Source: Candidatus Heimdallarchaeum aukensis (GTDB lineage Archaea > Asgardarchaeota > Heimdallarchaeia > Heimdallarchaeales > Heimdallarchaeaceae). From it: a stretch of DNA of 64,000 nt. This document shows, one piece after another, positions 27,075-36,627 of the stretch. Under the pieces are notes generated by a model. That model did not search any database, had not been told where the DNA came from, and saw only the letters and a list, made by a program, of their open reading frames with translations. How positions within the stretch are numbered: position 1 is the stretch's first letter; each line of letters opens with the position of its first letter. The translations under genes and the position numbers were made by a program. The stretch is taken from assembly GCA_021513695.1 (NCBI GenBank), contig CP084166.1, positions 768,001 through 832,000 on the forward strand. Direction: 5' to 3'.

Positions 27075-28376
27075 TTGCAATACTATATTCCAGAATGGGA
27101 CGATATGGTTAGTTCAAGGTATGACTATTGGAATGACACTGAACTACCTGATTCTAGAAAGGTTTATGCACATGAAATTTATCCCAAACCCAACTATGAT
27201 GGAATTTTAGTATCTAGAATGAAGATTGAAGAGAGTAAAACTAAGATTGAAAAAATAAAGAAAGTAGGAGTGCATAGATTTTTCAAGTTCAATGGACCCA
27301 TTTTTGGAGATTGTGGAGCTTGGGGATATATAAATGAAAAAGATCCTCCATTTGAAACAAAAGACATGTTAAATTACTATGAATCTTTTGGCTTTAATAT
27401 AGGTGTTTCCATTGACCACTTATGTATTCCCCAAGTTAAATCAGAATGGTATTATAGACAAGAATTGACACTAAAAAATGCAGAAAAATTTTTCAAATAT
27501 TATGAAAGTGGAGACTATTCTTTTGAAGCAGTAGGGGCAGCTCAAGGATGGGATTTAGAATCGTATAGATATGCAGTGCAAGAATTGCTAGATATAGGAT
27601 ATGATTTTATTGCCTTAGGAGGATTAGCACGAGCACAAACAGGAATAATTATTAAGATTCTTAAAAATATTCAAGATTTAATTAAAGAAAAGAAAATAAA
27701 GATCCATTTATTTGGTGCTGCAAGATTAGATGGCCTACGTGCATTCAATAATTTAGGAGTAACAAGTTTTGATTCAGCTTCTCCTCTTAGAAATGCGTGG
27801 TTAGGTTCTAAAAAGAATTATAGAGGTTTAGATTGGAAGGGTTATACTGCTATTCGTTTACCTTTCCTTTCAAGAACAAAGAAATATCAAAAGTTAGTAG
27901 AGGAAGGACTATTCACTATCAAAGAGCTAGAAGAATTCGAAAAGTCTATCTACGCTCTCCTAAGAAGATATGAAATAGAAAAATCTAGAAGTCCAGAAGA
28001 AATAATAGAAGCTTTTGAAATGCTCAACCAGACATTTACTTTAAGAGATGATCTTAAAGAAGACTACCTTGAAATCTTGAATGAACGACCATGGGAAAAA
28101 TGCTCTTGTCCTGTTTGCAAAGAAGCAGGAATGGATGTAGTTATTTTTAGGGGGAACAACAGGAACAGAAGAAGAGGTTTCCACAACACCTATGTTTTTT
28201 ATCAATTAATGCAGAAAATTCTTAATGAACCTAATTTCAAAGGAACTCCGCATTTAAATTTAATAAATGAAAAAGATTTTTCAATTCCAATTCAAGTTCA
28301 AGCGAAAAAATTAAAATCCAAATTTAACAAACAAACAAAAATTGATAATTTTATAGAACAAATAAGTGAGGAATAG
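27075..28376 (+). CDS. tRNA-guanine-transglycosylase-fold base-exchange enzyme, DpdA-like (no PUA domain)
   Basis: Ordered TGT motifs: FGDCGAWGY, IALGGLARA, HLFGAARLD, and SFDSASPLRNAWLG (catalytic Asp position). The Zn site is CSCPVC followed ~21 aa later by His. The N-terminus YIPEWDDMVSSRYDY..VYAHEIY..YDGILVS resembles DpdA rather than canonical TGT. TTG start with GGAGAG upstream. Confidence 0.65.
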   Translation: MQYYIPEWDDMVSSRYDYWNDTELPDSRKVYAHEIYPKPNYDGILVSRMKIEESKTKIEKIKKVGVHRFFKFNGPIFGDCGAWGYINEKDPPFETKDMLNYYESFGFNIGVSIDHLCIPQVKSEWYYRQELTLKNAEKFFKYYESGDYSFEAVGAAQGWDLESYRYAVQELLDIGYDFIALGGLARAQTGIIIKILKNIQDLIKEKKIKIHLFGAARLDGLRAFNNLGVTSFDSASPLRNAWLGSKKNYRGLDWKGYTAIRLPFLSRTKKYQKLVEEGLFTIKELEEFEKSIYALLRRYEIEKSRSPEEIIEAFEMLNQTFTLRDDLKEDYLEILNERPWEKCSCPVCKEAGMDVVIFRGNNRNRRRGFHNTYVFYQLMQKILNEPNFKGTPHLNLINEKDFSIPIQVQAKKLKSKFNKQTKIDNFIEQISEE

Positions 28377-28378
28377 CA

Positions 28379-29200
28379 ATGAATTCAGAGTTTGAGAATA
28401 TAGCCACCGAAATTATGATACAAGTGGGGACTGAAAAAGAAGAAGCATTAAGATGTCTTTATTACGAACCAAAAAATGAAATAAAACAAACTATTGTTCT
28501 TATTCCAGGTTTTTTTTCTCTGCCTAGTGCTTGGGACGAACTTTTAATAAATGCAAAAGAAGATTATAGAATATTCTTGATTGAAACCAGAGAGAAGCAT
28601 ACAGCAAAAATAAATAAAAAAAGTGACTTTTCTCTGGAACGTTTTGCTAATGACATCGCTGAAGTAATTGATTACTTAATGTTAAAAGATTATATTTTAG
28701 TTACAAGTAGTATGGGAGGAGCTTTCACATTAACTGCAATGAAAGAAAGCTTAATTCACCCTAAACATAGTTTTCTGGTAGGTCCTGTTTTAAGAGTTGA
28801 AATTCCTGATTGGTCATGGCCTTTAGTTAGAATAACTACTCCTTTCTTTTATCGTTTTATCTTAAAACCTTCAATAAAACTTTATGTCAGAAGAAAGTTC
28901 GAAAGAGATCAAGCTGAAAAATACTGTGTTTCATTAGATAACTTAGAAATTAGAAGAGTAAAGAAAACAATGCTAACGCTTAAAAAATTCCGCATTACTG
29001 CTGAAGACCTTAATGTCATAAATTCTCATTGTGTCCTCATAGGAGCTGAAAAGGATAAGCTCCATCAGTCTCAAATTACAAAATGGATTCATGAACAAAT
29101 ACCTAATTCAGACTATGTAGATTTAGGGTCAAATGTAGTTGCACATGGAATTCCACTCTTAGAATTAATAGAAAAAACAATAGAAAAAGATAATAATTGA
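28379..29200 (+). CDS. alpha/beta-fold hydrolase
   Basis: IVLIPGFFS, the nucleophile elbow VTSSMGGA, a late Asp (GAEKDKL) and His (VVAHGIP). Starts 2 nt after the TGT-like stop. Confidence 0.7.
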   Translation: MNSEFENIATEIMIQVGTEKEEALRCLYYEPKNEIKQTIVLIPGFFSLPSAWDELLINAKEDYRIFLIETREKHTAKINKKSDFSLERFANDIAEVIDYLMLKDYILVTSSMGGAFTLTAMKESLIHPKHSFLVGPVLRVEIPDWSWPLVRITTPFFYRFILKPSIKLYVRRKFERDQAEKYCVSLDNLEIRRVKKTMLTLKKFRITAEDLNVINSHCVLIGAEKDKLHQSQITKWIHEQIPNSDYVDLGSNVVAHGIPLLELIEKTIEKDNN

Positions 29201-29278: not shown

Positions 29279-30871
29279 ATGCAATTTCTCGCACCTTTTT
29301 CTATAAGACATTCAAAGATATTGGATCAAGATACTTTAGAACAACTAAAAAACGCTCTAAGCAATATAAAAGGGAAAAATATTCTTGTGGAGTTTACCCG
29401 AAACTTTTCTACATTGCTAAAAAACAAAGAAAAAGATAAAGATTTCACAAACTTGGCTTTAGATATCTTTTTCTCAATTGAAGATTATGAAAAAATCCTA
29501 GAATACTCATCGCCCCTTTACGCCGCAGAGTATTATTTTTATCGGGCATTAGCTTTCTATAAACTTAATCAGTTCAATAAGATTGCAAGCCTTAAGCTAC
29601 AATTTGAGATGAAATTTGAGAGAGCATTAGATTTACCTCGTAATCGCTTAATACTTGCTTTTTTAGATCTTTTTATTACTCTTAAAGAAAATCCTGAAGA
29701 AGTCGATCTTAAACTAGAAGAAATAGGTGCGTTTTTAGATAGCCAAGATGAAGAATTCAAAAGTAAATTTTGGGTCATAATAGTATTTTCCTATTATTCT
29801 GAACTCTTATTTATAAGAGATCACTTGAATAAAACAGAAGAAATTGCTAGATTGATTCTTTCCTATTCTCTTCAAAATCAAGACCCATACTTACAAAGTA
29901 ATGCACTCATATTGCTTTCCTCAATTTATATAAGAAAAGGAGAATTTAGAAAAGCAAAACAAATGATTAAATCCTCTCTTGTTCCTGTTAATCAAACAGG
30001 AGAACTAACAAATAAAGCTAAAATACTAAACAATCTTCTGCTTTTAGATTTAGCAAAAATGGACTATCTAAAAGCAGTTGATAGAATTTCAAAGATGAAA
30101 GAACTAAAAATAAGTGATACAAAAAGAAAAGAGTTAGAGATACTTGAACTCAAGTTAAAAATTCATTTAAAACTTGAAAATAATATAGAAGAAAAAATTA
30201 ATGAAATAACTTCAGATTTAGAAAAAGAAGATGAATTCTATCAAGATATTCTCCTCCTACAGTGTTGGTATAGCTTAAAAAAGAAGAACTATGACGAAGC
30301 AAAGAAAACAATAGAAGAACACCTAAAACTCACAGAAAATAACCTAAGTTCATTGTTGAAAAATCGATATTATTATGGATTATATCATAAAGAAGTAGAA
30401 GACTATGAAAAAGCTTTTTCAGATTTTGAGGAAGTAATTGAACTAAGTAAAAAAGACTACAAAATAGAATTATTAGTAAAAAGTTTGATGCATTTCCTTG
30501 ATCTTGCTTTCTCTAATAATAACGAAAAGTATTCGCTTTCTGAAATTATTCAAAAGATAAACATTTTGGAAGAAACTTCAACAAAGCAATTTATTCCTAA
30601 ATTGCAAGTAGATGCTTTAATGATAAAAATGATTTTCACACTTCTAAATTCAACAGAAATAGACATTATGGAAGATTGGGAAAATGCAATGAAAAAAGTT
30701 CATAAATTTAGATACATTGATCGTGTTAAACAACTAAACATAATAAGAAGTTGCTCTGAAAACAATTCTGAAAATAACAATATATATCAACTTGAAGAAT
30801 TATTCAAAGAAATAATACAACCTTACGAATGCTTCTTTTTTATTAAGAAGCCAAAGAAAGAAGAGGGGTAG
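29279..30871 (+). CDS. TPR-like all-helical repeat protein
   Basis: 530 aa of repeated helix pairs with Y/A/L spacing (AEYYFYRALAFYKLNQFNKI, LLSSIYIRKGEFRKAKQMI, YYYGLYHKEVEDYEKAFSDFEEVI). No NTPase motif. Confidence 0.6.
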   Translation: MQFLAPFSIRHSKILDQDTLEQLKNALSNIKGKNILVEFTRNFSTLLKNKEKDKDFTNLALDIFFSIEDYEKILEYSSPLYAAEYYFYRALAFYKLNQFNKIASLKLQFEMKFERALDLPRNRLILAFLDLFITLKENPEEVDLKLEEIGAFLDSQDEEFKSKFWVIIVFSYYSELLFIRDHLNKTEEIARLILSYSLQNQDPYLQSNALILLSSIYIRKGEFRKAKQMIKSSLVPVNQTGELTNKAKILNNLLLLDLAKMDYLKAVDRISKMKELKISDTKRKELEILELKLKIHLKLENNIEEKINEITSDLEKEDEFYQDILLLQCWYSLKKKNYDEAKKTIEEHLKLTENNLSSLLKNRYYYGLYHKEVEDYEKAFSDFEEVIELSKKDYKIELLVKSLMHFLDLAFSNNNEKYSLSEIIQKINILEETSTKQFIPKLQVDALMIKMIFTLLNSTEIDIMEDWENAMKKVHKFRYIDRVKQLNIIRSCSENNSENNNIYQLEELFKEIIQPYECFFFIKKPKKEEG

Positions 30872-30952: not shown

Positions 30953-31120
30953 ATGACACAAAAATGGATTTGTACTTTATGTGGCTACATTTATGACCCT
31001 GCCGAAGGAGACCCTGACGGAGGAATCGCTCCAGGAACAGCTTTTGAAGATATCCCTGAAGATTGGGTTTGTCCTGAATGCGGAGCTGCAAAAGAAGATT
31101 TCGAACCCTATGAAGAATAA
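30953..31120 (+). CDS. rubredoxin
   Basis: A 55-aa ORF below the track cutoff: [55 protein letters not shown]. It has two CxxCG knuckles and the conserved YDP and PG..F..P..W.CP pattern. AGAGGA lies upstream. Confidence 0.92.
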
Positions 31121-31142: not shown

Positions 31143-32327
31143 TTACAACTTTCTATTTTTTCTTGATAATTGAACTATTTTTTTTATTACTACAAATTCT
31201 GTTTCATTTAGGACGTTTTTTGTGATTTTTATTTTTTCTTGCTGAATTCTTACTTGGTTTGCATATTCATTCTCAACTAATAGCTCCATCTCCTCTGTTA
31301 TCGCTCCATCTACATTTGTTTTAATAACTTCCATGAGGTTATTATATTTTTCTAGTATTTTTTCATAAACAGCTAATTTTGAAGAGAATTTTGATGTATA
31401 CTTATTTATTTCTTCAGCTCGTTTAATGTCTATAGAAGTTAAACTATCAGTAGCTTCAGATAAATCTCTTAATTCTTCTTCACTAAATTCTCTTTTAACA
31501 AAACTTGAAATTATAGAAATAAGTGATTTATCCAGCAAATAATCTGTTTTTCTCTCATAGCTTATACTAGGGATTGATTTTGATAGAGAAGATTTTTTAC
31601 TTTTGAAGGTAGTATCTTTTTTTTCTGTTGTTAAATACTTTTCAACAAGAACTAATTTTTCATTCCACCATTCCTTAAAAGAAAGACCAGGAGTATATTC
31701 AATAGCAAAATTTAGAAAAATTGTTCCTTTAGCTAAAACTGTTGCGCCTATAGGTTTTTTGAATATGGGTTTACTTGTTCTTTTACCTACAAAGTCATAT
31801 GTACTAAAAGAATGAAAGTTTGAGGGAAGATCTTTTGCTTTACCAAAAAAAATTATTTCTTTTCCAAGATTTGCTAAATCTTTGAGATCTCCTAAAGTTA
31901 CTAAATAATCTTCTCCTAACGAAAGATAAACAAGATCATAAGTTTTTTTGGATAATTTTCTAACAGATTCTGGAATAGCTAATTTTTCTGCTCTTTCTTT
32001 TATTGCTTTTTTTGATAAGCCTGAAAAAGTGCACTCATAAGGAGGAAGAAGTTCATTCTCATTAACTAATCCAAAACCTGCAGAAATAATGTAATAATCA
32101 ACTTCAGCTTTTGACGAAAGAATCTTAACAGCTTTTTTTATTGCAAGAGCTTGTCCACCTATGTATAATTCTCCTGCTTCTCTTAATAATGAAGAAAATT
32201 TTTCTTTTGCACTTTCTCTTTGATCTTTTGTTTCTAGGTCCTTACATGTTGGTTGATCATCATGTTGTACAGACTTTTTCTTTCCACAAGAGTTAATAAC
32301 AAGTATTGAAGGTTTCAGAGATCTCAC
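31143..32327 (-). CDS. DUF6884-like N-terminal domain fused to a long coiled-coil
   Basis: ILVINSCGKKKS, ELYIGGQA and YYIISAGFGLVNENELLPPYECTF match my recollection of the DUF6884 pattern (SC.k.K .. LY .. ilSA..GL..p...l.PYd). The C-terminal ~170 aa are heptad-rich. Confidence 0.45.
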   Translation of the reverse strand: MRSLKPSILVINSCGKKKSVQHDDQPTCKDLETKDQRESAKEKFSSLLREAGELYIGGQALAIKKAVKILSSKAEVDYYIISAGFGLVNENELLPPYECTFSGLSKKAIKERAEKLAIPESVRKLSKKTYDLVYLSLGEDYLVTLGDLKDLANLGKEIIFFGKAKDLPSNFHSFSTYDFVGKRTSKPIFKKPIGATVLAKGTIFLNFAIEYTPGLSFKEWWNEKLVLVEKYLTTEKKDTTFKSKKSSLSKSIPSISYERKTDYLLDKSLISIISSFVKREFSEEELRDLSEATDSLTSIDIKRAEEINKYTSKFSSKLAVYEKILEKYNNLMEVIKTNVDGAITEEMELLVENEYANQVRIQQEKIKITKNVLNETEFVVIKKIVQLSRKNRKL

Positions 32328-32333
32328 CTAAAG

Positions 32334-32753
32334 CTATTCAGTATCCTTTTTTGCCAAATATCGATTATAAAATCTTTTAATTTTCTTTTTTTCGAGATCA
32401 AAATCTAGATCTTTACTATTTTTGCCTTCTTGCCTTTCCATTTTATTGAGTTTACTTTGAATTTTGCTTAGTTTTAGAGCAAGCATTGAATTTCTTCTAA
32501 AAAGTTCACTGTTTTCAAAAAACAAAACCCCATATGCTTTTCTAAGTTTACTATACTTTATTGTTAATTCATTATATCGTTCTCTTAATTCTTCAAGATT
32601 CTTAAGTAGACTAACCTCATCAATTTGTAAATCCTCGCTGTTTAATGCCAGAAAATCATAATAATCAAGGAGTGTGTTAATTATATCATCAGTATATTCA
32701 GTAACATCTTCAAAAATAGCAGGAATCTTGACATTAGTGATCATTTTCTTCAT
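32334..32753 (-). CDS. coiled-coil protein
   Basis: 139 aa, helical and charged. Its start overlaps the upstream stop by 4 nt, and a 6-nt gap separates it from the downstream gene. Confidence 0.5.
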   Translation of the reverse strand: MKKMITNVKIPAIFEDVTEYTDDIINTLLDYYDFLALNSEDLQIDEVSLLKNLEELRERYNELTIKYSKLRKAYGVLFFENSELFRRNSMLALKLSKIQSKLNKMERQEGKNSKDLDFDLEKKKIKRFYNRYLAKKDTE

Positions 32754-33106
32754 TTTGCTACACCTTTTAGAATACCATCTAACTTCTCTTCAAGTTCAGT
32801 AATAACATTATAATCTTCATTATATTCTTTCTTCATTTGTTTTTCTTCTTCTATACTTTTTTTCAATTTTTCAATTTCTTTTTCTCTTTCTGGAATTTTC
32901 TCCAAAAGAGCCTTATATTCTAGTATATACTCCACAAATGCCCAAGAAAGCTTTTTTTCTTTGTTATATTCTGTAAGAAACTTAAAAAATTGGTTTACTT
33001 TTTCTATTATTGTTTCAGATTTTTCCTTTCTCTCTTCAGCGATTCTAGCAATTTTTCGCTGAATTCTTGAGGAAAAAGAAATCTTTACTTTCTCTTGTTT
33101 TTTCAT
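32750..33106 (-). CDS. possible ribbon-helix-helix DNA-binding domain plus coiled-coil
   Basis: The N-terminus KVKISFSSRIQRKIARIAEERKEKSETIIEKV fits the strand-helix-helix of CopG/Arc-type RHH. The remainder is coiled-coil. First gene of the minus-strand trio. Confidence 0.4.
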   Translation of the reverse strand: MKKQEKVKISFSSRIQRKIARIAEERKEKSETIIEKVNQFFKFLTEYNKEKKLSWAFVEYILEYKALLEKIPEREKEIEKLKKSIEEEKQMKKEYNEDYNVITELEEKLDGILKGVAK

Positions 33107-33246
33107 TTACAACTTTTTTTTCAGCTTGCTGTTTTAAAAGTTTATTAAGTTTAACTCAAAATCAGATTTTTCAAAACTTTTTTCTTTTACTTCCATCATT
33201 TTTTTTAAATCAAATAACTTTAATAGCTCTAATTCAAAGTTAAATT

Positions 33247-33576
33247 ATGGAAGAAATAAGTGTCAAGGAGTATTTAGAAAAATCAGGACAATTACTAGAA
33301 AAATATAGATTTAATATTGAAAATCTTCGACATCAGAGAAAACAAATAGAACAGAAATTTTTCCTCCCTCACGAGATGGTTGACTTTTTTCATACAAATA
33401 AAAGCGAATACAAAGTTTGGTTAAAAATTCAAGACATGATTCTCACACTTGAAGATGCTTATGCAGACCTAGTTGGGAGTATGATGGAAGCAAAAGCTAA
33501 CCCTGATAATTATAATTATTATTTAGAAGACAAACGTATTACAATTATGCAACTAAAAGAAACTGAAGAAGAATAA
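33247..33576 (+). CDS. small helical hypothetical protein
   Basis: 109 aa, charged and helical. Diverges from the trio and precedes the phosphoesterase gene. Confidence 0.45.
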   Translation: MEEISVKEYLEKSGQLLEKYRFNIENLRHQRKQIEQKFFLPHEMVDFFHTNKSEYKVWLKIQDMILTLEDAYADLVGSMMEAKANPDNYNYYLEDKRITIMQLKETEEE

Positions 33577-33678: not shown

Positions 33679-35265
33679 TTGATGAGATTTGTTTTATTTT
33701 CTGATACCCATATTGGTGGAAGATATGATGAAATGATATTGATGAAAGGTATAGATTTTATTAATAACATTGATGGAGATATTTTTATTCACTGTGGAGA
33801 TTTAACTGGTTCTGGCACTTTGGCTGAATATGAGATTGCTAGACTTTATTTAGAAAAAATCAAGAAAAGGCCTTTTTTCATTGTTCCTGGAAATCATGAC
33901 TGCAAAAATGTGGGTGATTTACTTTTTGAAGAAATAGTTGGTGAGCGTTTTTGGGTAAAGACATTCGAAAAAAAGAAAACTCGGATTCTTGGTCTTGACT
34001 CTACTGAACCCGATGCAAATACTGGAAGAATGGGTCCTAAATCAATAAAAAGAATTTATGAAGAATTTGAGGATTTACCAGAATATTGGTTAAAAGTTTT
34101 AGTTTTTCATCATCAGACTTTACCAATTCCCTATACTGGTAGAGAAAGAAGTGCAATCAAAGATGCAGGAGATGTAGTGAAAGCTATTCTTGATTGTAAC
34201 ATTCATCTTGTTTTCAATGGTCATAGGCACATTTCTAATGTCTATAAGATGTCTGATGGAGTAGTAAATGCTTGGATTATTAATGTTGGTACATTATCTT
34301 GTAAAAAAACTAGATATAGAGAAGAGTATAGCTTAACTGTCGTTGATGCTTCTTTAAAGAAAAACAACCTTGCTATTCGTAGTATACTACTTAAGAAAGA
34401 GCCTATCAGAGAAGTTGTAAAATATTCTGGTAAATTCCAACGTTTTATTGCCCCTATGAATAAGAAACACATAGCAACAATAATTCAAATAGGCAATACA
34501 GCTTTTTCTAATTCACGATTTAGGATGGGTAATTTCTACAAAGGTCTCGAAACAATTAATCTCATCCCTTGTGATGTAGTTGTCCATTGTGGAGAAGTTA
34601 CAGGTGCCTCCTATGTCAATGAGTTTCAAAGAGCAAAGGCTTTATTATCTCAAATAGAAAAACCTCTTATTGTTGTTCCAGGAGATAATGATGCTTTTCC
34701 ACTTGGTTGGGATTTGTTTCCTGAGTACATTGGTGATCCTAACCCCTATTTTGAGAATGAGCATTTGATTGTTAAAGGGTTCAATACTTGCTTAATTGAC
34801 GAACAAGAGGGAAGACTCGGAAGAGGAAATATGAAAGAGATGATAACAACATTTGAGAATAAATCAAAAATAGGAGTAGTAGCTTTTCATCATTCAATAA
34901 TGCCTTTACCTCACTCTAAACATGATGCAGAGCTAATAGATGCAGGAGATGTTCTTGCTGCCATAGTAAACCACAGAATCAATCTCGTTTTAACTGGAGC
35001 TAAAAATAGAAGCGGGTGTTGGCAAGTTAACGACACTGTATTTGTAAATGCTGGAACACTCAGCTCTGAAAATATTACTACAAGAGACGGAAATAGTTTC
35101 AACATAATAACCATTAGCCAAACAGATATAGGTAAACTTTACGAGGTCGATGAGTATTTTGTTGAAACAAACGAAAGAAAAACTATTGGAGTTTTCCATA
35201 TTTCTGATAGGGGGATACCTATTCTCATTCCTGATAGAAAGGTTCCCAACACCATTCATTTATGA
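33679..35265 (+). CDS. tandem calcineurin-like metallophosphoesterase: intact N-domain plus degenerate C-domain
   Basis: Domain 1 has FSDTHIG, CGDLTGSG, PGNHD, FHHQ and NGHRH. Domain 2 has IGNTAFS, CGEVTGAS, PGDNDAF, FHHS and TGAKNRS at the same positions, so most metal ligands are lost. Confidence 0.8.
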   Translation: MMRFVLFSDTHIGGRYDEMILMKGIDFINNIDGDIFIHCGDLTGSGTLAEYEIARLYLEKIKKRPFFIVPGNHDCKNVGDLLFEEIVGERFWVKTFEKKKTRILGLDSTEPDANTGRMGPKSIKRIYEEFEDLPEYWLKVLVFHHQTLPIPYTGRERSAIKDAGDVVKAILDCNIHLVFNGHRHISNVYKMSDGVVNAWIINVGTLSCKKTRYREEYSLTVVDASLKKNNLAIRSILLKKEPIREVVKYSGKFQRFIAPMNKKHIATIIQIGNTAFSNSRFRMGNFYKGLETINLIPCDVVVHCGEVTGASYVNEFQRAKALLSQIEKPLIVVPGDNDAFPLGWDLFPEYIGDPNPYFENEHLIVKGFNTCLIDEQEGRLGRGNMKEMITTFENKSKIGVVAFHHSIMPLPHSKHDAELIDAGDVLAAIVNHRINLVLTGAKNRSGCWQVNDTVFVNAGTLSSENITTRDGNSFNIITISQTDIGKLYEVDEYFVETNERKTIGVFHISDRGIPILIPDRKVPNTIHL

Positions 35266-35343: not shown

Positions 35344-36627
35344 ATGCACAAAGAGGTAAAAAATTCAAAAAACGTTTCTTTTCCAGTTGTAATAAAAAAT
35401 TTAGATGAGAGAATGAATAAATGGTTGAAAGAAGCACAGAAACGTATATTTAGTATTGCTGCAGGAGATAGGATTTCATTCATAGCTTCTGCCATAGCAC
35501 AAGTTGGTTTTGGCAAAATCCTCTATGCTGCAAATGAACTTGGGGTTGATATTGAAAAAACCAAACCATACATTTTTTTTGCTCCTGACGGAACTTGCTC
35601 ATACAACGAAATTAGAATAAAAAGAGGTTTTACATATGGTTGTATATTCAAAGCAGATTTCGAGGGACTGATTGGTACTAATAACTCAATGCCAAACGGT
35701 TGTGGATATAGCTTATATGAACTTAAAGATTGGAACGATGATGAAACTCTAATCAGAACTTTAAACCAAATAAAGCAAAATATAACAGAAGAACAAGCAA
35801 AAGAACTAGGAAAAGGCAATCATTTTATTGCTGTTTACAAGGTTTTAGACGCTATATCAGGAGAAGATACAGAAAGGAGAATGGTATTACTTCATTGTAG
35901 TGGGCATGATTTAAGCAAAAAACCACTTTATTTCTTCAACTGGTTAGAAGAAACAGATGGATGTCATAAAGTACAAACACCACATGGAGAAATTTACCTT
36001 TTAGAAAGTGAGGCAAAAAAGAGATATATCAAAGAATTTGAGAAACTTGACAAACACAATAAAGAAGCTCGTGTCACTGTCATGAAAGAGTTGTTTAGAG
36101 ACTCTTCCTATGAATTAATTTCAAGTATCACTCACCAAGGGTTATATAATAACGGTTCATATCATTTTTTGGGAATACAAAAAAGCGAAAAACTTATTCC
36201 TATAGCTTTCAATGCAGATGAAGGAGGAATTGCTGTCAAGACAAAGAAGAATCTGTCAGGACAATTTATAGATCAATGGAAACAAGGAACAAGAGTGAAA
36301 GATTTAGGATATGAAAGAGAATTTAAAGAGCTCAACTTTACTCCACACGGAGGAGGATACGAATTCAAATACCCAATCAAACGTTTTGTTATATTCTTAA
36401 ATGATCAAGGACTGGATCACTTCTCGGTTGAATTAAAAAAGCCGAAAGAGCCAAGTATTAAACTTATTGCTTCCTATTTCAAACCTATTAGAGAATACAT
36501 GACATATAGGAGAAAGTTACCAGTAATGAAAGAAGTCTTTAAAGCGGAGCTAGCAAACCACATTTATGATCTTGTTCCATTTATGCAATTACATCCTAAA
36601 GTTAGTATTCCTGGAGGACATTACTAA
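35344..36627 (+). CDS. hypothetical protein with RtcB-like motif series (possible divergent RNA ligase)
   Basis: Ordered motifs MPNGCGYS, LGKGNHFIAVYKV, VLLHCSGHD and FTPHGGGYE resemble RtcB PD.H.G.G, G.GNHF.E, HSGSRG and HGAGR. The spacing differs from canonical RtcB. Confidence 0.3.
   Translation: MHKEVKNSKNVSFPVVIKNLDERMNKWLKEAQKRIFSIAAGDRISFIASAIAQVGFGKILYAANELGVDIEKTKPYIFFAPDGTCSYNEIRIKRGFTYGCIFKADFEGLIGTNNSMPNGCGYSLYELKDWNDDETLIRTLNQIKQNITEEQAKELGKGNHFIAVYKVLDAISGEDTERRMVLLHCSGHDLSKKPLYFFNWLEETDGCHKVQTPHGEIYLLESEAKKRYIKEFEKLDKHNKEARVTVMKELFRDSSYELISSITHQGLYNNGSYHFLGIQKSEKLIPIAFNADEGGIAVKTKKNLSGQFIDQWKQGTRVKDLGYEREFKELNFTPHGGGYEFKYPIKRFVIFLNDQGLDHFSVELKKPKEPSIKLIASYFKPIREYMTYRRKLPVMKEVFKAELANHIYDLVPFMQLHPKVSIPGGHY

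Follow-up and report, generated by a model that had tools for sequence, protein, structure and literature searches.

A DUF6884/DpdC-like protein and its DpdA partner in Candidatus Heimdallarchaeum aukensis: a candidate 7-deazaguanine DNA-modification cassette in Asgard archaea

Modification of DNA with 7-deazaguanine derivatives is documented in bacteria, where it is the business of the Dpd system, in phages and in archaeal viruses. In the bacterial system DpdA places preQ0 in DNA and DpdC, acting independently of DpdA and DpdB, turns the resulting preQ0-DNA into 7-amido-7-deazaguanine (ADG) DNA; in Salmonella the DpdB ATPase is needed for preQ0 insertion (PMC10164549). The largest survey of dpd systems that we examined required dpdA together with dpdB and reported eight bacterial phyla, and a 2025 survey of dpd islands lists DUF6884 as the Pfam family for dpdC (bioRxiv 10.1101/2025.02.24.639861). 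As described by the Pfam consortium, DUF6884 adopts a YaaA-like 'cantaloupe' fold and bears CxxxK and (L)SAxxG motifs, and both DUF6884 and YaaA possess a positively charged DNA-binding cleft, with base flipping being predicted (PMC11701544). Here we consider a member of this family from an Asgard archaeon, namely gene C (31143..32327, minus strand; 394 amino acids, GTG start), in a 64,000-nucleotide stretch of the Candidatus Heimdallarchaeum aukensis genome (contig CP084166.1, positions 768,001 to 832,000; hereafter the window). Gene C is the last of three minus-strand genes, A, B and C, and is convergent with a gene for a DNA-guanine transglycosylase, DpdA (27075..28376, plus strand; 433 amino acids), 2.8 kb away. 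On balance, we favor the view that C is a DpdC-family (DUF6884, YaaA-like fold) base-modifying enzyme working with this DpdA, the two probably constituting a compact 7-deazaguanine DNA-modification cassette, as judged from sequence and by analogy with the bacterial system. The original prediction for the three genes had left their function as unknown; this can now be replaced by a specific hypothesis, because DpdA is a conserved, and elsewhere fused, partner.

The assignment of C comes from profile, motif and fold evidence, which together back the original prediction of DUF6884 for this gene. C matches the Pfam DUF6884 profile (PF21818) over residues 49-144 with E = 1.2e-7 and 32.3 bits against a gathering cut-off of 30; the precomputed annotation places the same family on 31 of 33 homologues of C; and six PADLOC DpdC models match it, the best with E = 1.3e-10 over residues 7-114. 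The patterns SCGKKK, LY.GGQ and IISAGFGLV....LPPYE that had been quoted for this protein are indeed present, respectively as SCGKKK (residues 13-18), LYIGGQ (residues 54-59) and IISAGFGLVNENELLPPYE (residues 80-98). The CxxxK motif of the family corresponds to C14-G-K-K-K18 and its SAxxG region to I81-S82-A83-G84-F85-G86. The 26 Asgard homologues show no variation at Y55, G57, S82-A83-G84-F85-G86, Y97, F101, L137-G138 or Y141, and conservation of C14 and K18 reaches 90% or more. When nine sequences from Asgard archaea and from the fused bacterial and haloarchaeal proteins discussed below are aligned, the invariant positions include C14, K18, Y55, G57, Q59, S82-A83-G84 and G86, and likewise Y97, F101, L137-G138 and Y141, along with the SAG-GL motif. 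An AlphaFold2 (AF2) model built from 26 homologues (mean predicted local distance difference test score, pLDDT, 89.6) shows an alpha/beta core (residues 1-235), a disordered linker (residues 236-262) and a compact six-helix domain (residues 267-389) whose longest helix has 24 residues. YaaA is the top structural match of this model, and the core has the YaaA-like alpha/beta 'cantaloupe' fold. By alignment and motifs, this catalytic-looking DUF6884 core occupies 31623..32327 on the minus strand. Every homologue of C for which a source name is given is from an Asgard lineage (Heimdall, Kari or Thor).

Thus, by sequence, C is a member of the DUF6884/DpdC family. It resembles the bacterial DpdC of the Salmonella enterica serovar Montevideo dpdABC system (DUF6884/DUF328-like) in its Pfam family, its matches to the PADLOC DpdC models, its YaaA-like fold, its CxxxK and SAxxG motifs and its genetic linkage to a DpdA transglycosylase. 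It differs from it in matching the DpdC profile only over the first ~110 residues, and in possessing an extra helical domain that is part of a novel accessory module. Further, unlike the bacterial Dpd systems, the window has no detected DpdB or DpdD-K, and C is archaeal and chromosomal, lies outside the dpdA operon in this genome and has a predicted activity.

The structural match to YaaA raises an alternative, in which C, like YfjM or YaaA, serves in DNA damage or stress, has nothing to do with 7-deazaguanine and lies near DpdA through leftover synteny. YaaA itself serves in peroxide stress and has no link to the tRNA-guanine transglycosylase (TGT) enzymes; the E. coli representative (PDB 5CAJ; DUF328/PF03883) is 14% identical to C in sequence, and C has no PF03883 match. 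Beyond the position of YaaA as the top structural match, this alternative can draw on the presence of YfjM among the interactors of DNA lesions (PMC11701544) and on the occurrence of DUF6884 without a nearby DpdA in some lineages. Nevertheless, we consider it very unlikely: DUF6884 and DpdA are repeatedly found in tandem, divergent or fused in Asgard archaea, Bacteria and Haloarchaea, and the match of the Asgard core to the DpdA-fused domains (E ~1e-43) is far stronger than its match to generic DUF6884 (E = 1e-7).

The neighboring transglycosylase, which had been named as TGT-like and as a context to be surveyed, turns out, by sequence, to be a genuine DpdA; with this DUF6884 subfamily it forms a conserved pairing that elsewhere is a fusion. 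The DpdA equivalog of NCBIfam, NF041059 (cut-off 200), gives it 388 bits, the archaeal arcTGT model (cut-off 350) only 46 and the bacterial Tgt model (cut-off 306.75) only 31; it matches the PADLOC DpdA model with E = 1.2e-105 and the solved Salmonella DNA-guanine transglycosylase (PDB 7UI4) with E = 3.6e-67. In the alignment to 7UI4, the equivalents of the catalytic aspartates Asp95 (GDCGA), Asp130 (VSIDH) and Asp256 (TSFDS) and of Gly206/207 (residues from PMC10164549) are conserved, as is the CxCxxC...H zinc site, and Phe99 of the Salmonella enzyme is replaced by Trp. On a metagenome-assembled contig 96% identical to the window (L001:11929-13184, minus strand), DpdA is called as two open reading frames (ORFs) of 83 and 336 amino acids, and this splitting suggests a frameshift or an assembly error there; in the window, as in H. 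endolithica, the gene is unbroken.

It may be asked if the DpdA/DUF6884 pair acts instead on RNA (tRNA or rRNA), in an Asgard version of the archaeosine pathway. The base-contacting His181 of Salmonella DpdA is replaced in the window protein by Gln, which is the state at this position in tRNA TGTs. Archaea modify G15 of their tRNAs with preQ0 derivatives (PMC5699537), and the surroundings of the cassette are of a housekeeping kind, no restriction genes having been found there. In two loci, a 175-amino-acid DUF5591 protein (Pfam E = 7.7e-10) is encoded after the DpdA orthologue (L019:7126-7653(-) and L017_8120_8641(-), the former unclassified and the latter from Thorarchaeota); this domain occurs in the archaeosine synthase ArcS. 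A syntenic locus, L020, lacks both the DUF5591 gene and DpdA. Such a placement after DpdA hints that some Asgard cassettes might yield a different, G+-like, 7-deazaguanine derivative. An RNA target is still improbable in our estimation, given the wide separation of the DpdA score from those of the arcTGT and Tgt models, the fact that no PUA or C1-C3 tRNA-binding domain was detected in the window DpdA by the Pfam scan, and the identity of its closest relatives, which are DpdA proteins of Dpd-type DNA restriction-modification islands. Hence, we prefer DNA as the likely substrate.

The partnership of the two proteins is seen both in gene neighborhoods and in gene fusions. Compared across loci (numbered with the prefix L), DUF6884 and a DpdA orthologue that is 45-69% identical to the window DpdA are found: (i) in tandem, in L002/L011, L005, L008/L012 and L026; (ii) divergently, in L013/L019 and in the Thorarchaeota locus L017; (iii) convergently and 2.8 kb apart, in the window, L001 and the H. 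endolithica locus L010. As the flanking genes differ wholly between these loci, the pairing is not a residue of synteny. The evidence from fusions for the DUF6884-DpdA partnership is stronger than that from gene neighborhoods. A hidden Markov model (HMM) of the Asgard core matches the N-terminus of proteins of 690-715 amino acids named 'DpdA' on plasmids of Picosynechococcus (WP_062436786.1; L022:1074-3149), Nostoc (WP_331711066.1; L024:11158-13227) and Paenibacillus (WP_149847115.1; L025:9077-11221) with E = 1.5e-40 to 1.7e-45, and the C-terminus of a 969-amino-acid Haloarcula plasmid DpdA, in which the order is DpdA-DUF6884 (WP_004966131.1; L023:8533-11442), with E = 3e-42; the four fusion genes thus encode proteins of 690-970 amino acids. 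The same HMM recovers a Kariarchaeota fusion of a small TGT paralogue to DUF6884. On the Picosynechococcus protein, Pfam itself recognizes DUF6884 at residues 43-154 and TGT at residues 339-525. RefSeq labels the four plasmid fusions 'tRNA-guanine transglycosylase DpdA' or, in one case, 'hypothetical protein', the DpdC-like half being absent from the annotation.

These plasmid fusions are the closest relatives that we found for both halves of the archaeal pair: their DUF6884 domains share all the invariant residues with the Asgard core, and the window DpdA shares 42-46% identity with the bacterial fusion proteins and ~39% with that of Haloarcula. As in the window, no DpdB is annotated in the regions of the fusion loci that were inspected. 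The fusions are single polypeptides in defense islands, which jointly encode QueC/D/E, a YhhQ-type transporter, DEAD-box helicases, a PD-(D/E)XK nuclease, DpdJ and DpdK, whereas the window has separate genes in a housekeeping context and its DUF6884 protein carries the extra helical domain; none of this QueC/D/E, YhhQ, helicase, nuclease and DpdJ/K set was found in the Asgard loci inspected. A second, small TGT paralogue of ~300 amino acids was also observed beside the cassette in Kariarchaeota (L014:3273-5225(+)) and in L002 (L002:10873-11769(-)); the Kariarchaeota copy is the one fused to DUF6884, and a second DUF6884 gene directly follows it. A comparable gene, for a 'tRNA-guanine transglycosylase' of ~307-315 amino acids, is present in the bacterial plasmid islands; the window has no small TGT paralogue.

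A further regularity concerns the part of C that follows the core. The long Asgard forms (520-548 amino acids) consist of the core, a helical domain with the pattern R..QE..G....LN..K....KTL..W...PE.L, a basic linker and a beta-rich domain with [YH]P[LY]QN[VI]. Where DUF6884 is short (~240 amino acids), the helical and beta parts are encoded by a separate neighboring gene in every case found. In Heimdall AB_125, this gene lies downstream of the short DUF6884 and codes for 295 amino acids, which match the long forms with E = 6.6e-36; its orientation is convergent in the Thor-type loci (L013/L019, L015, L016, L017, L018 and L020/L021). This C-module always accompanies the DUF6884 subfamily, whether fused or split. 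The window C retains only the helical half (31161..31544, minus strand; residues 262-389) and misses the basic linker and beta domain: the C-module HMM of 283 positions matches its residues 261-388 through positions 12-134 only (E = 3e-14), and among the window's remaining ORFs of 40 amino acids or more, none matches that HMM at E <= 10. No relative of the helical domain was found in Pfam or PDB; we infer that it acts as a DNA- or partner-binding adaptor.

We advance the following plausible mechanism for the cassette. Initially, DpdA would exchange specific DNA guanines for preQ0, which archaea already make for archaeosine. C would then bind the modified site and probably flip the base into the conserved pocket formed by Cys14/Lys18 (CxxxK), Tyr55, Gln59, Ser82-Ala-Gly and Tyr97. 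There, by analogy with the bacterial DpdC, the nitrile would most likely be hydrated to the 7-amido form (dADG); the likeliest chemistry would have Cys14 attacking the nitrile, with water resolving the thioimidate to the amide. The helical module, together with its beta part where present, might serve in DNA binding or targeting and could thereby offset the missing DpdB.

Several observations weigh against this proposal. On the side of C, the match to the DpdC profile is limited to about the first 110 residues, the N-terminal third of a model of 312 positions, the PF21818 score exceeds its cut-off by just 2 bits, and C has no NCBIfam match. C and DpdA are separate transcription units in the window rather than one operon, and in AB_125 and some Thor loci (L018, L020), DUF6884 and the C-module occur with no DpdA within 7-10 kb; these arrangements indicate that the family can work, or can at any rate be kept, where DpdA is not next to it. 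YfjM, also a DUF6884 member, is tied to DNA-lesion binding and not to deazaguanine chemistry (PMC11701544). On the side of DpdA, there is the aforementioned His181 to Gln change. As to the other components, a PADLOC scan of 54 window proteins (E <= 1e-5 for 47 of them, E <= 0.1 for the remaining 7) found no DpdB, a ParB/DndB-like ATPase, and none is annotated in the Asgard loci inspected, though insertion in Salmonella needs its ATPase; no DpdD-K restriction genes (helicases, PLD nuclease) were found in the window, where the neighbors are housekeeping genes; and no genes for preQ0 synthesis or transport were found in the window, the test for QueC/D/E being a weak one (BLASTP with two distant queries).

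The missing DpdB could also be read differently, with C being a non-catalytic DNA-handling cofactor that replaces DpdB by binding or bending DNA, or by flipping the guanine for DpdA, in which case the final mark would be dPreQ0. Such a role would account for the need that DpdB fills in Salmonella and would fit the fusion of DUF6884 to DpdA in bacterial plasmid systems with no DpdB annotated in the regions inspected, as well as the positively charged cleft and predicted base flipping of DUF6884/YaaA (PMC11701544). In addition, DpdB is reportedly dispensable in some clusters (PMC12839542). This version is nonetheless unlikely, for the invariant Cys, Lys, Tyr, Gln and Ser set looks catalytic, the canonical DpdC is independent of DpdA/B (PMC10164549), and phage DpdAs are reportedly essential for base insertion (PMC6884629) and are not known to have a DpdB partner. 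Accordingly, a catalytic C remains our preference.

What, then, of the two genes that precede C? Gene A (32750..33106, minus strand; 118 amino acids, ATG start) and gene B (32334..32753, minus strand; 139 amino acids, ATG start) overlap by 4 nt at the stop of A and the start of B (ATGA, 32750-32753), and the TAG stop of B is separated by 6 nt (32328-32333) from the GTG of C, such that the three co-oriented ORFs, their overlap and their gap lie exactly as originally described. All three are real genes by the sequence evidence, since K9W45_03260 and K9W45_03255 of Ca. Heimdallarchaeum aukensis match A and B, respectively, at 100% identity, and diverged homologues of A, B and C are present in other Heimdall lineages. 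The original prediction had gone further and seen in them a hetero-oligomeric coiled-coil assembly, led by a ribbon-helix-helix (RHH) repressor segment in A, with long heptad-rich regions in all three proteins. That picture is not supported by the comparisons below, although some of its elements are.

Taking the heptads first, coiled coils are expected to show extended a/d periodicity through 4-5 heptads or more. A crude home-made test of this periodicity finds a heptad-patterned stretch in B (residues 77-111) that only 6 of 300 shuffles equal; A is marginal in the same test (56/300), and C gives no signal (185/300). Therefore, the claim of heptad-rich regions holds for B, is borderline for A and is not supported for C. 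This result, together with the compact helical domain in its AF2 model, where helices do not exceed 24 residues, argues against a coiled coil in C. The AF2 model of A, built from a two-sequence alignment (pLDDT 68.8), has helices at residues 13-25, 33-51, 55-69 and 71-113, the last being 43 residues long; as a monomer, its residues 1-10 are disordered, with pLDDT of 41-61, and there is no strand. A does resemble the CopG/Arc/MetJ RHH proteins in having an alternating-hydrophobic N-terminal segment followed by two predicted helices, in being the first gene of its operon and in facing a divergent promoter region. It departs from them in having no profile or PDB match, in a K-E-K-S where they have the G-x-S/T turn, and in a long helical extension of ~70 residues. 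No RHH family appears among its Pfam hits at E <= 1, and phmmer, run on the PDB at E <= 10, retrieves no RHH chain; an hhalign comparison with nine hand-entered RHH sequences returns the expected strand-helix-helix register with a probability of 3.9% and a score of 16.4. The repressor segment is hence unsupported, with both databases negative, a low-confidence model devoid of the strand, and a low hhalign probability.

Comparative genomics also bears on the association of A and B with C. B is restricted to Heimdall lineages, with 7 representative clusters among 1.84 billion proteins, and is preceded by an A homologue at every locus examined; the contig of L031 holds only the end of A, and there B is followed by a convergent unrelated gene. 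Homologues of A that are 31-42% identical occur in AB_125, L026 and L028. In L026/L027, A, B, a long C, DpdA, an alpha/beta-hydrolase (ABH) gene and a TPR-protein gene are all collinear, B being 46% (phmmer) to 55% (tblastn) identical; the window has these genes too, its DpdA-ABH-TPR block being in the reverse orientation. In AB_125, A and B are followed by three unrelated genes and then by the short DUF6884 and its split C-module, with no DpdA. In L028/L029, A and B lie beside ABH, TPR, rubredoxin and D genes, with DUF6884 and DpdA both absent. Conversely, C-DpdA occurs without A, B and D in L002, L005, L008, L013/L019 and L017. The 6-nt coupling of A-B to C is specific to Heimdallarchaeum, the B-C gap being 114 nt in L026. 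The idea of A-B being restricted to one genus can be set aside in light of L026 (with C-DpdA) and L028 (without C). Thus, conservation of the A-B-C order, which had been named as a check on the trio, holds for the Heimdallarchaeum species and L026/L027, and breaks down elsewhere, where A-B is found without C and C-DpdA without A-B.

This double dissociation, namely A-B without DUF6884 (L028/L029, L031) and DUF6884 without A-B in at least five Asgard lineages, argues that A and B are not obligate subunits of the DUF6884 machine. They are probably a separate constant pair of small helical proteins, co-transcribed with C in Heimdallarchaeum and unlikely to have a catalytic role; at most, they might be lineage-specific regulators or adaptors. 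The 'coupled trio' is, in effect, the junction of two independent modules. D, a small helical protein of 109 amino acids (33247..33576, plus strand), appears to move with the first of these: matches to its family HMM occur in AB_125, L026, L028 and L030, each near A-B, and it is directly divergent from A-B only in the Heimdallarchaeum loci (the window, L001, L009 and L010).

Between A and D lies a divergent spacer of 140 nt (33107..33246), across which, as had been noted, the trio faces a phosphoesterase-containing gene group, and the ORF map bears this out. The spacer is ~90% identical in an alignment across four Heimdallarchaeum relatives, with the flanking proteins being 77-94% identical, and it presumably carries promoters for both the A and the D sides. 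It holds long invariant blocks, e.g., TTATTAAAGTTATTTGATTT and TTAATAAACTTTTAAAACA, which could be TATA/BRE elements or operator sites; the operator search in 33107..33246 gave only weak, low-complexity, AT-rich imperfect inverted repeats. The conserved spacer is also among the points that can be marshaled for a version of the original idea in which the products of A, B and C, made from one coupled mRNA, would assemble into a hetero-oligomeric coiled coil and be autoregulated by an RHH domain of A acting on this spacer. The tight spacing with its 4-nt overlap and 6-nt gap, the adjacency that is kept in Heimdallarchaeum species and in the more distant L026/L027, the significant heptad pattern of B, the 43-residue helix predicted in A, and the alignment of the A N-terminus to RHH proteins in the expected register are all compatible with it. 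However, C has no heptad signal and ends in a compact helical part, the RHH has neither a Pfam nor a PDB match, and the genes part company in both directions, with three unrelated genes intervening between A-B and C in AB_125 and the B-C gap widening in L026. We accordingly assign a low probability to such a complex and retain the reading of C as an enzyme that would work with DpdA.

The remaining genes of the region deserve brief mention. The stop of DpdA is 2 nt from the start of the ABH gene (28379..29200), and a TPR protein (29279..30871) and then a rubredoxin (30953..31120) follow downstream. In L026, L028 and AB_125, ABH and TPR genes lie close to A-B, to the C-DpdA cassette or to both; as they are retained even where C and DpdA are absent, they look like syntenic backbone rather than parts of the system. 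On the other side, downstream of D, is a protein with two tandem metallophosphoesterase domains (33679..35265), which is weakly like anti-phage phosphoesterase models (PADLOC PDC-S10, E = 1.1e-16) and falls far under the cut-off of the NCBIfam DS9_1 model. It is followed by an ORF of 427 amino acids (35344..36627), and this pair is kept beside D only within Heimdallarchaeum. The ORF had been called RtcB-like; its score on Pfam RtcB (PF01139) is 10.9 bits (E = 0.27) against a cut-off of 27 and it has no PDB sequence match, so an RtcB ligase identity was dropped, leaving it without any family assignment. Elsewhere, the window (G+C ~30%) has mostly housekeeping genes and Asgard-typical small GTPases, and Rfam and tRNA scans of it found nothing. 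Among the 47 window proteins outside 27-37 kb, PADLOC matches were seen to mad3 (E = 1.7e-27) and mad8 of the MADS system, to a pVip-like radical SAM protein (E = 6.7e-13), to AriA and to an ATPase-Toprim model.

The family assignment as such is not new, the NCBI pipeline already having both the name 'DUF6884 domain-containing protein' and a DpdA model. In the searchable literature, whose coverage is limited such that absence there is absence of evidence only, we found no link of Asgard archaea to DpdA, DpdC or Dpd-type modification, no recognition that many proteins named 'DpdA' are DUF6884-DpdA fusions, and no description of the helical and beta accessory module. Asgard archaea are the closest prokaryotic relatives of eukaryotes. 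We tentatively suggest, as a conjecture that may well prove wrong, that Heimdall, Thor and Kari lineages mark their own chromosomal DNA with a 7-deazaguanine by means of DpdA, the DUF6884 enzyme and the helical and beta module, needing neither DpdB nor a restriction partner. This would amount to an 'orphan' epigenetic or protective hypermodification, and in Heimdallarchaeum, where the beta domain is lost, A-B may fill its targeting or regulatory role.

Two results are usable irrespective of that conjecture: a DpdA-linked DUF6884 subfamily with clear invariant residues as catalytic candidates, and a new accessory module, which some genomes encode in fused form and others as a separate gene. Likewise, viewing the locus as a junction of modules should prevent the 'coupled trio' from being over-read as a single complex. 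If the cassette is active, Asgard chromosomes would carry a hypermodified base, with a bearing on: (i) virus-host biology; (ii) the reading of Asgard nanopore and PacBio data; (iii) how DpdA works without DpdB.

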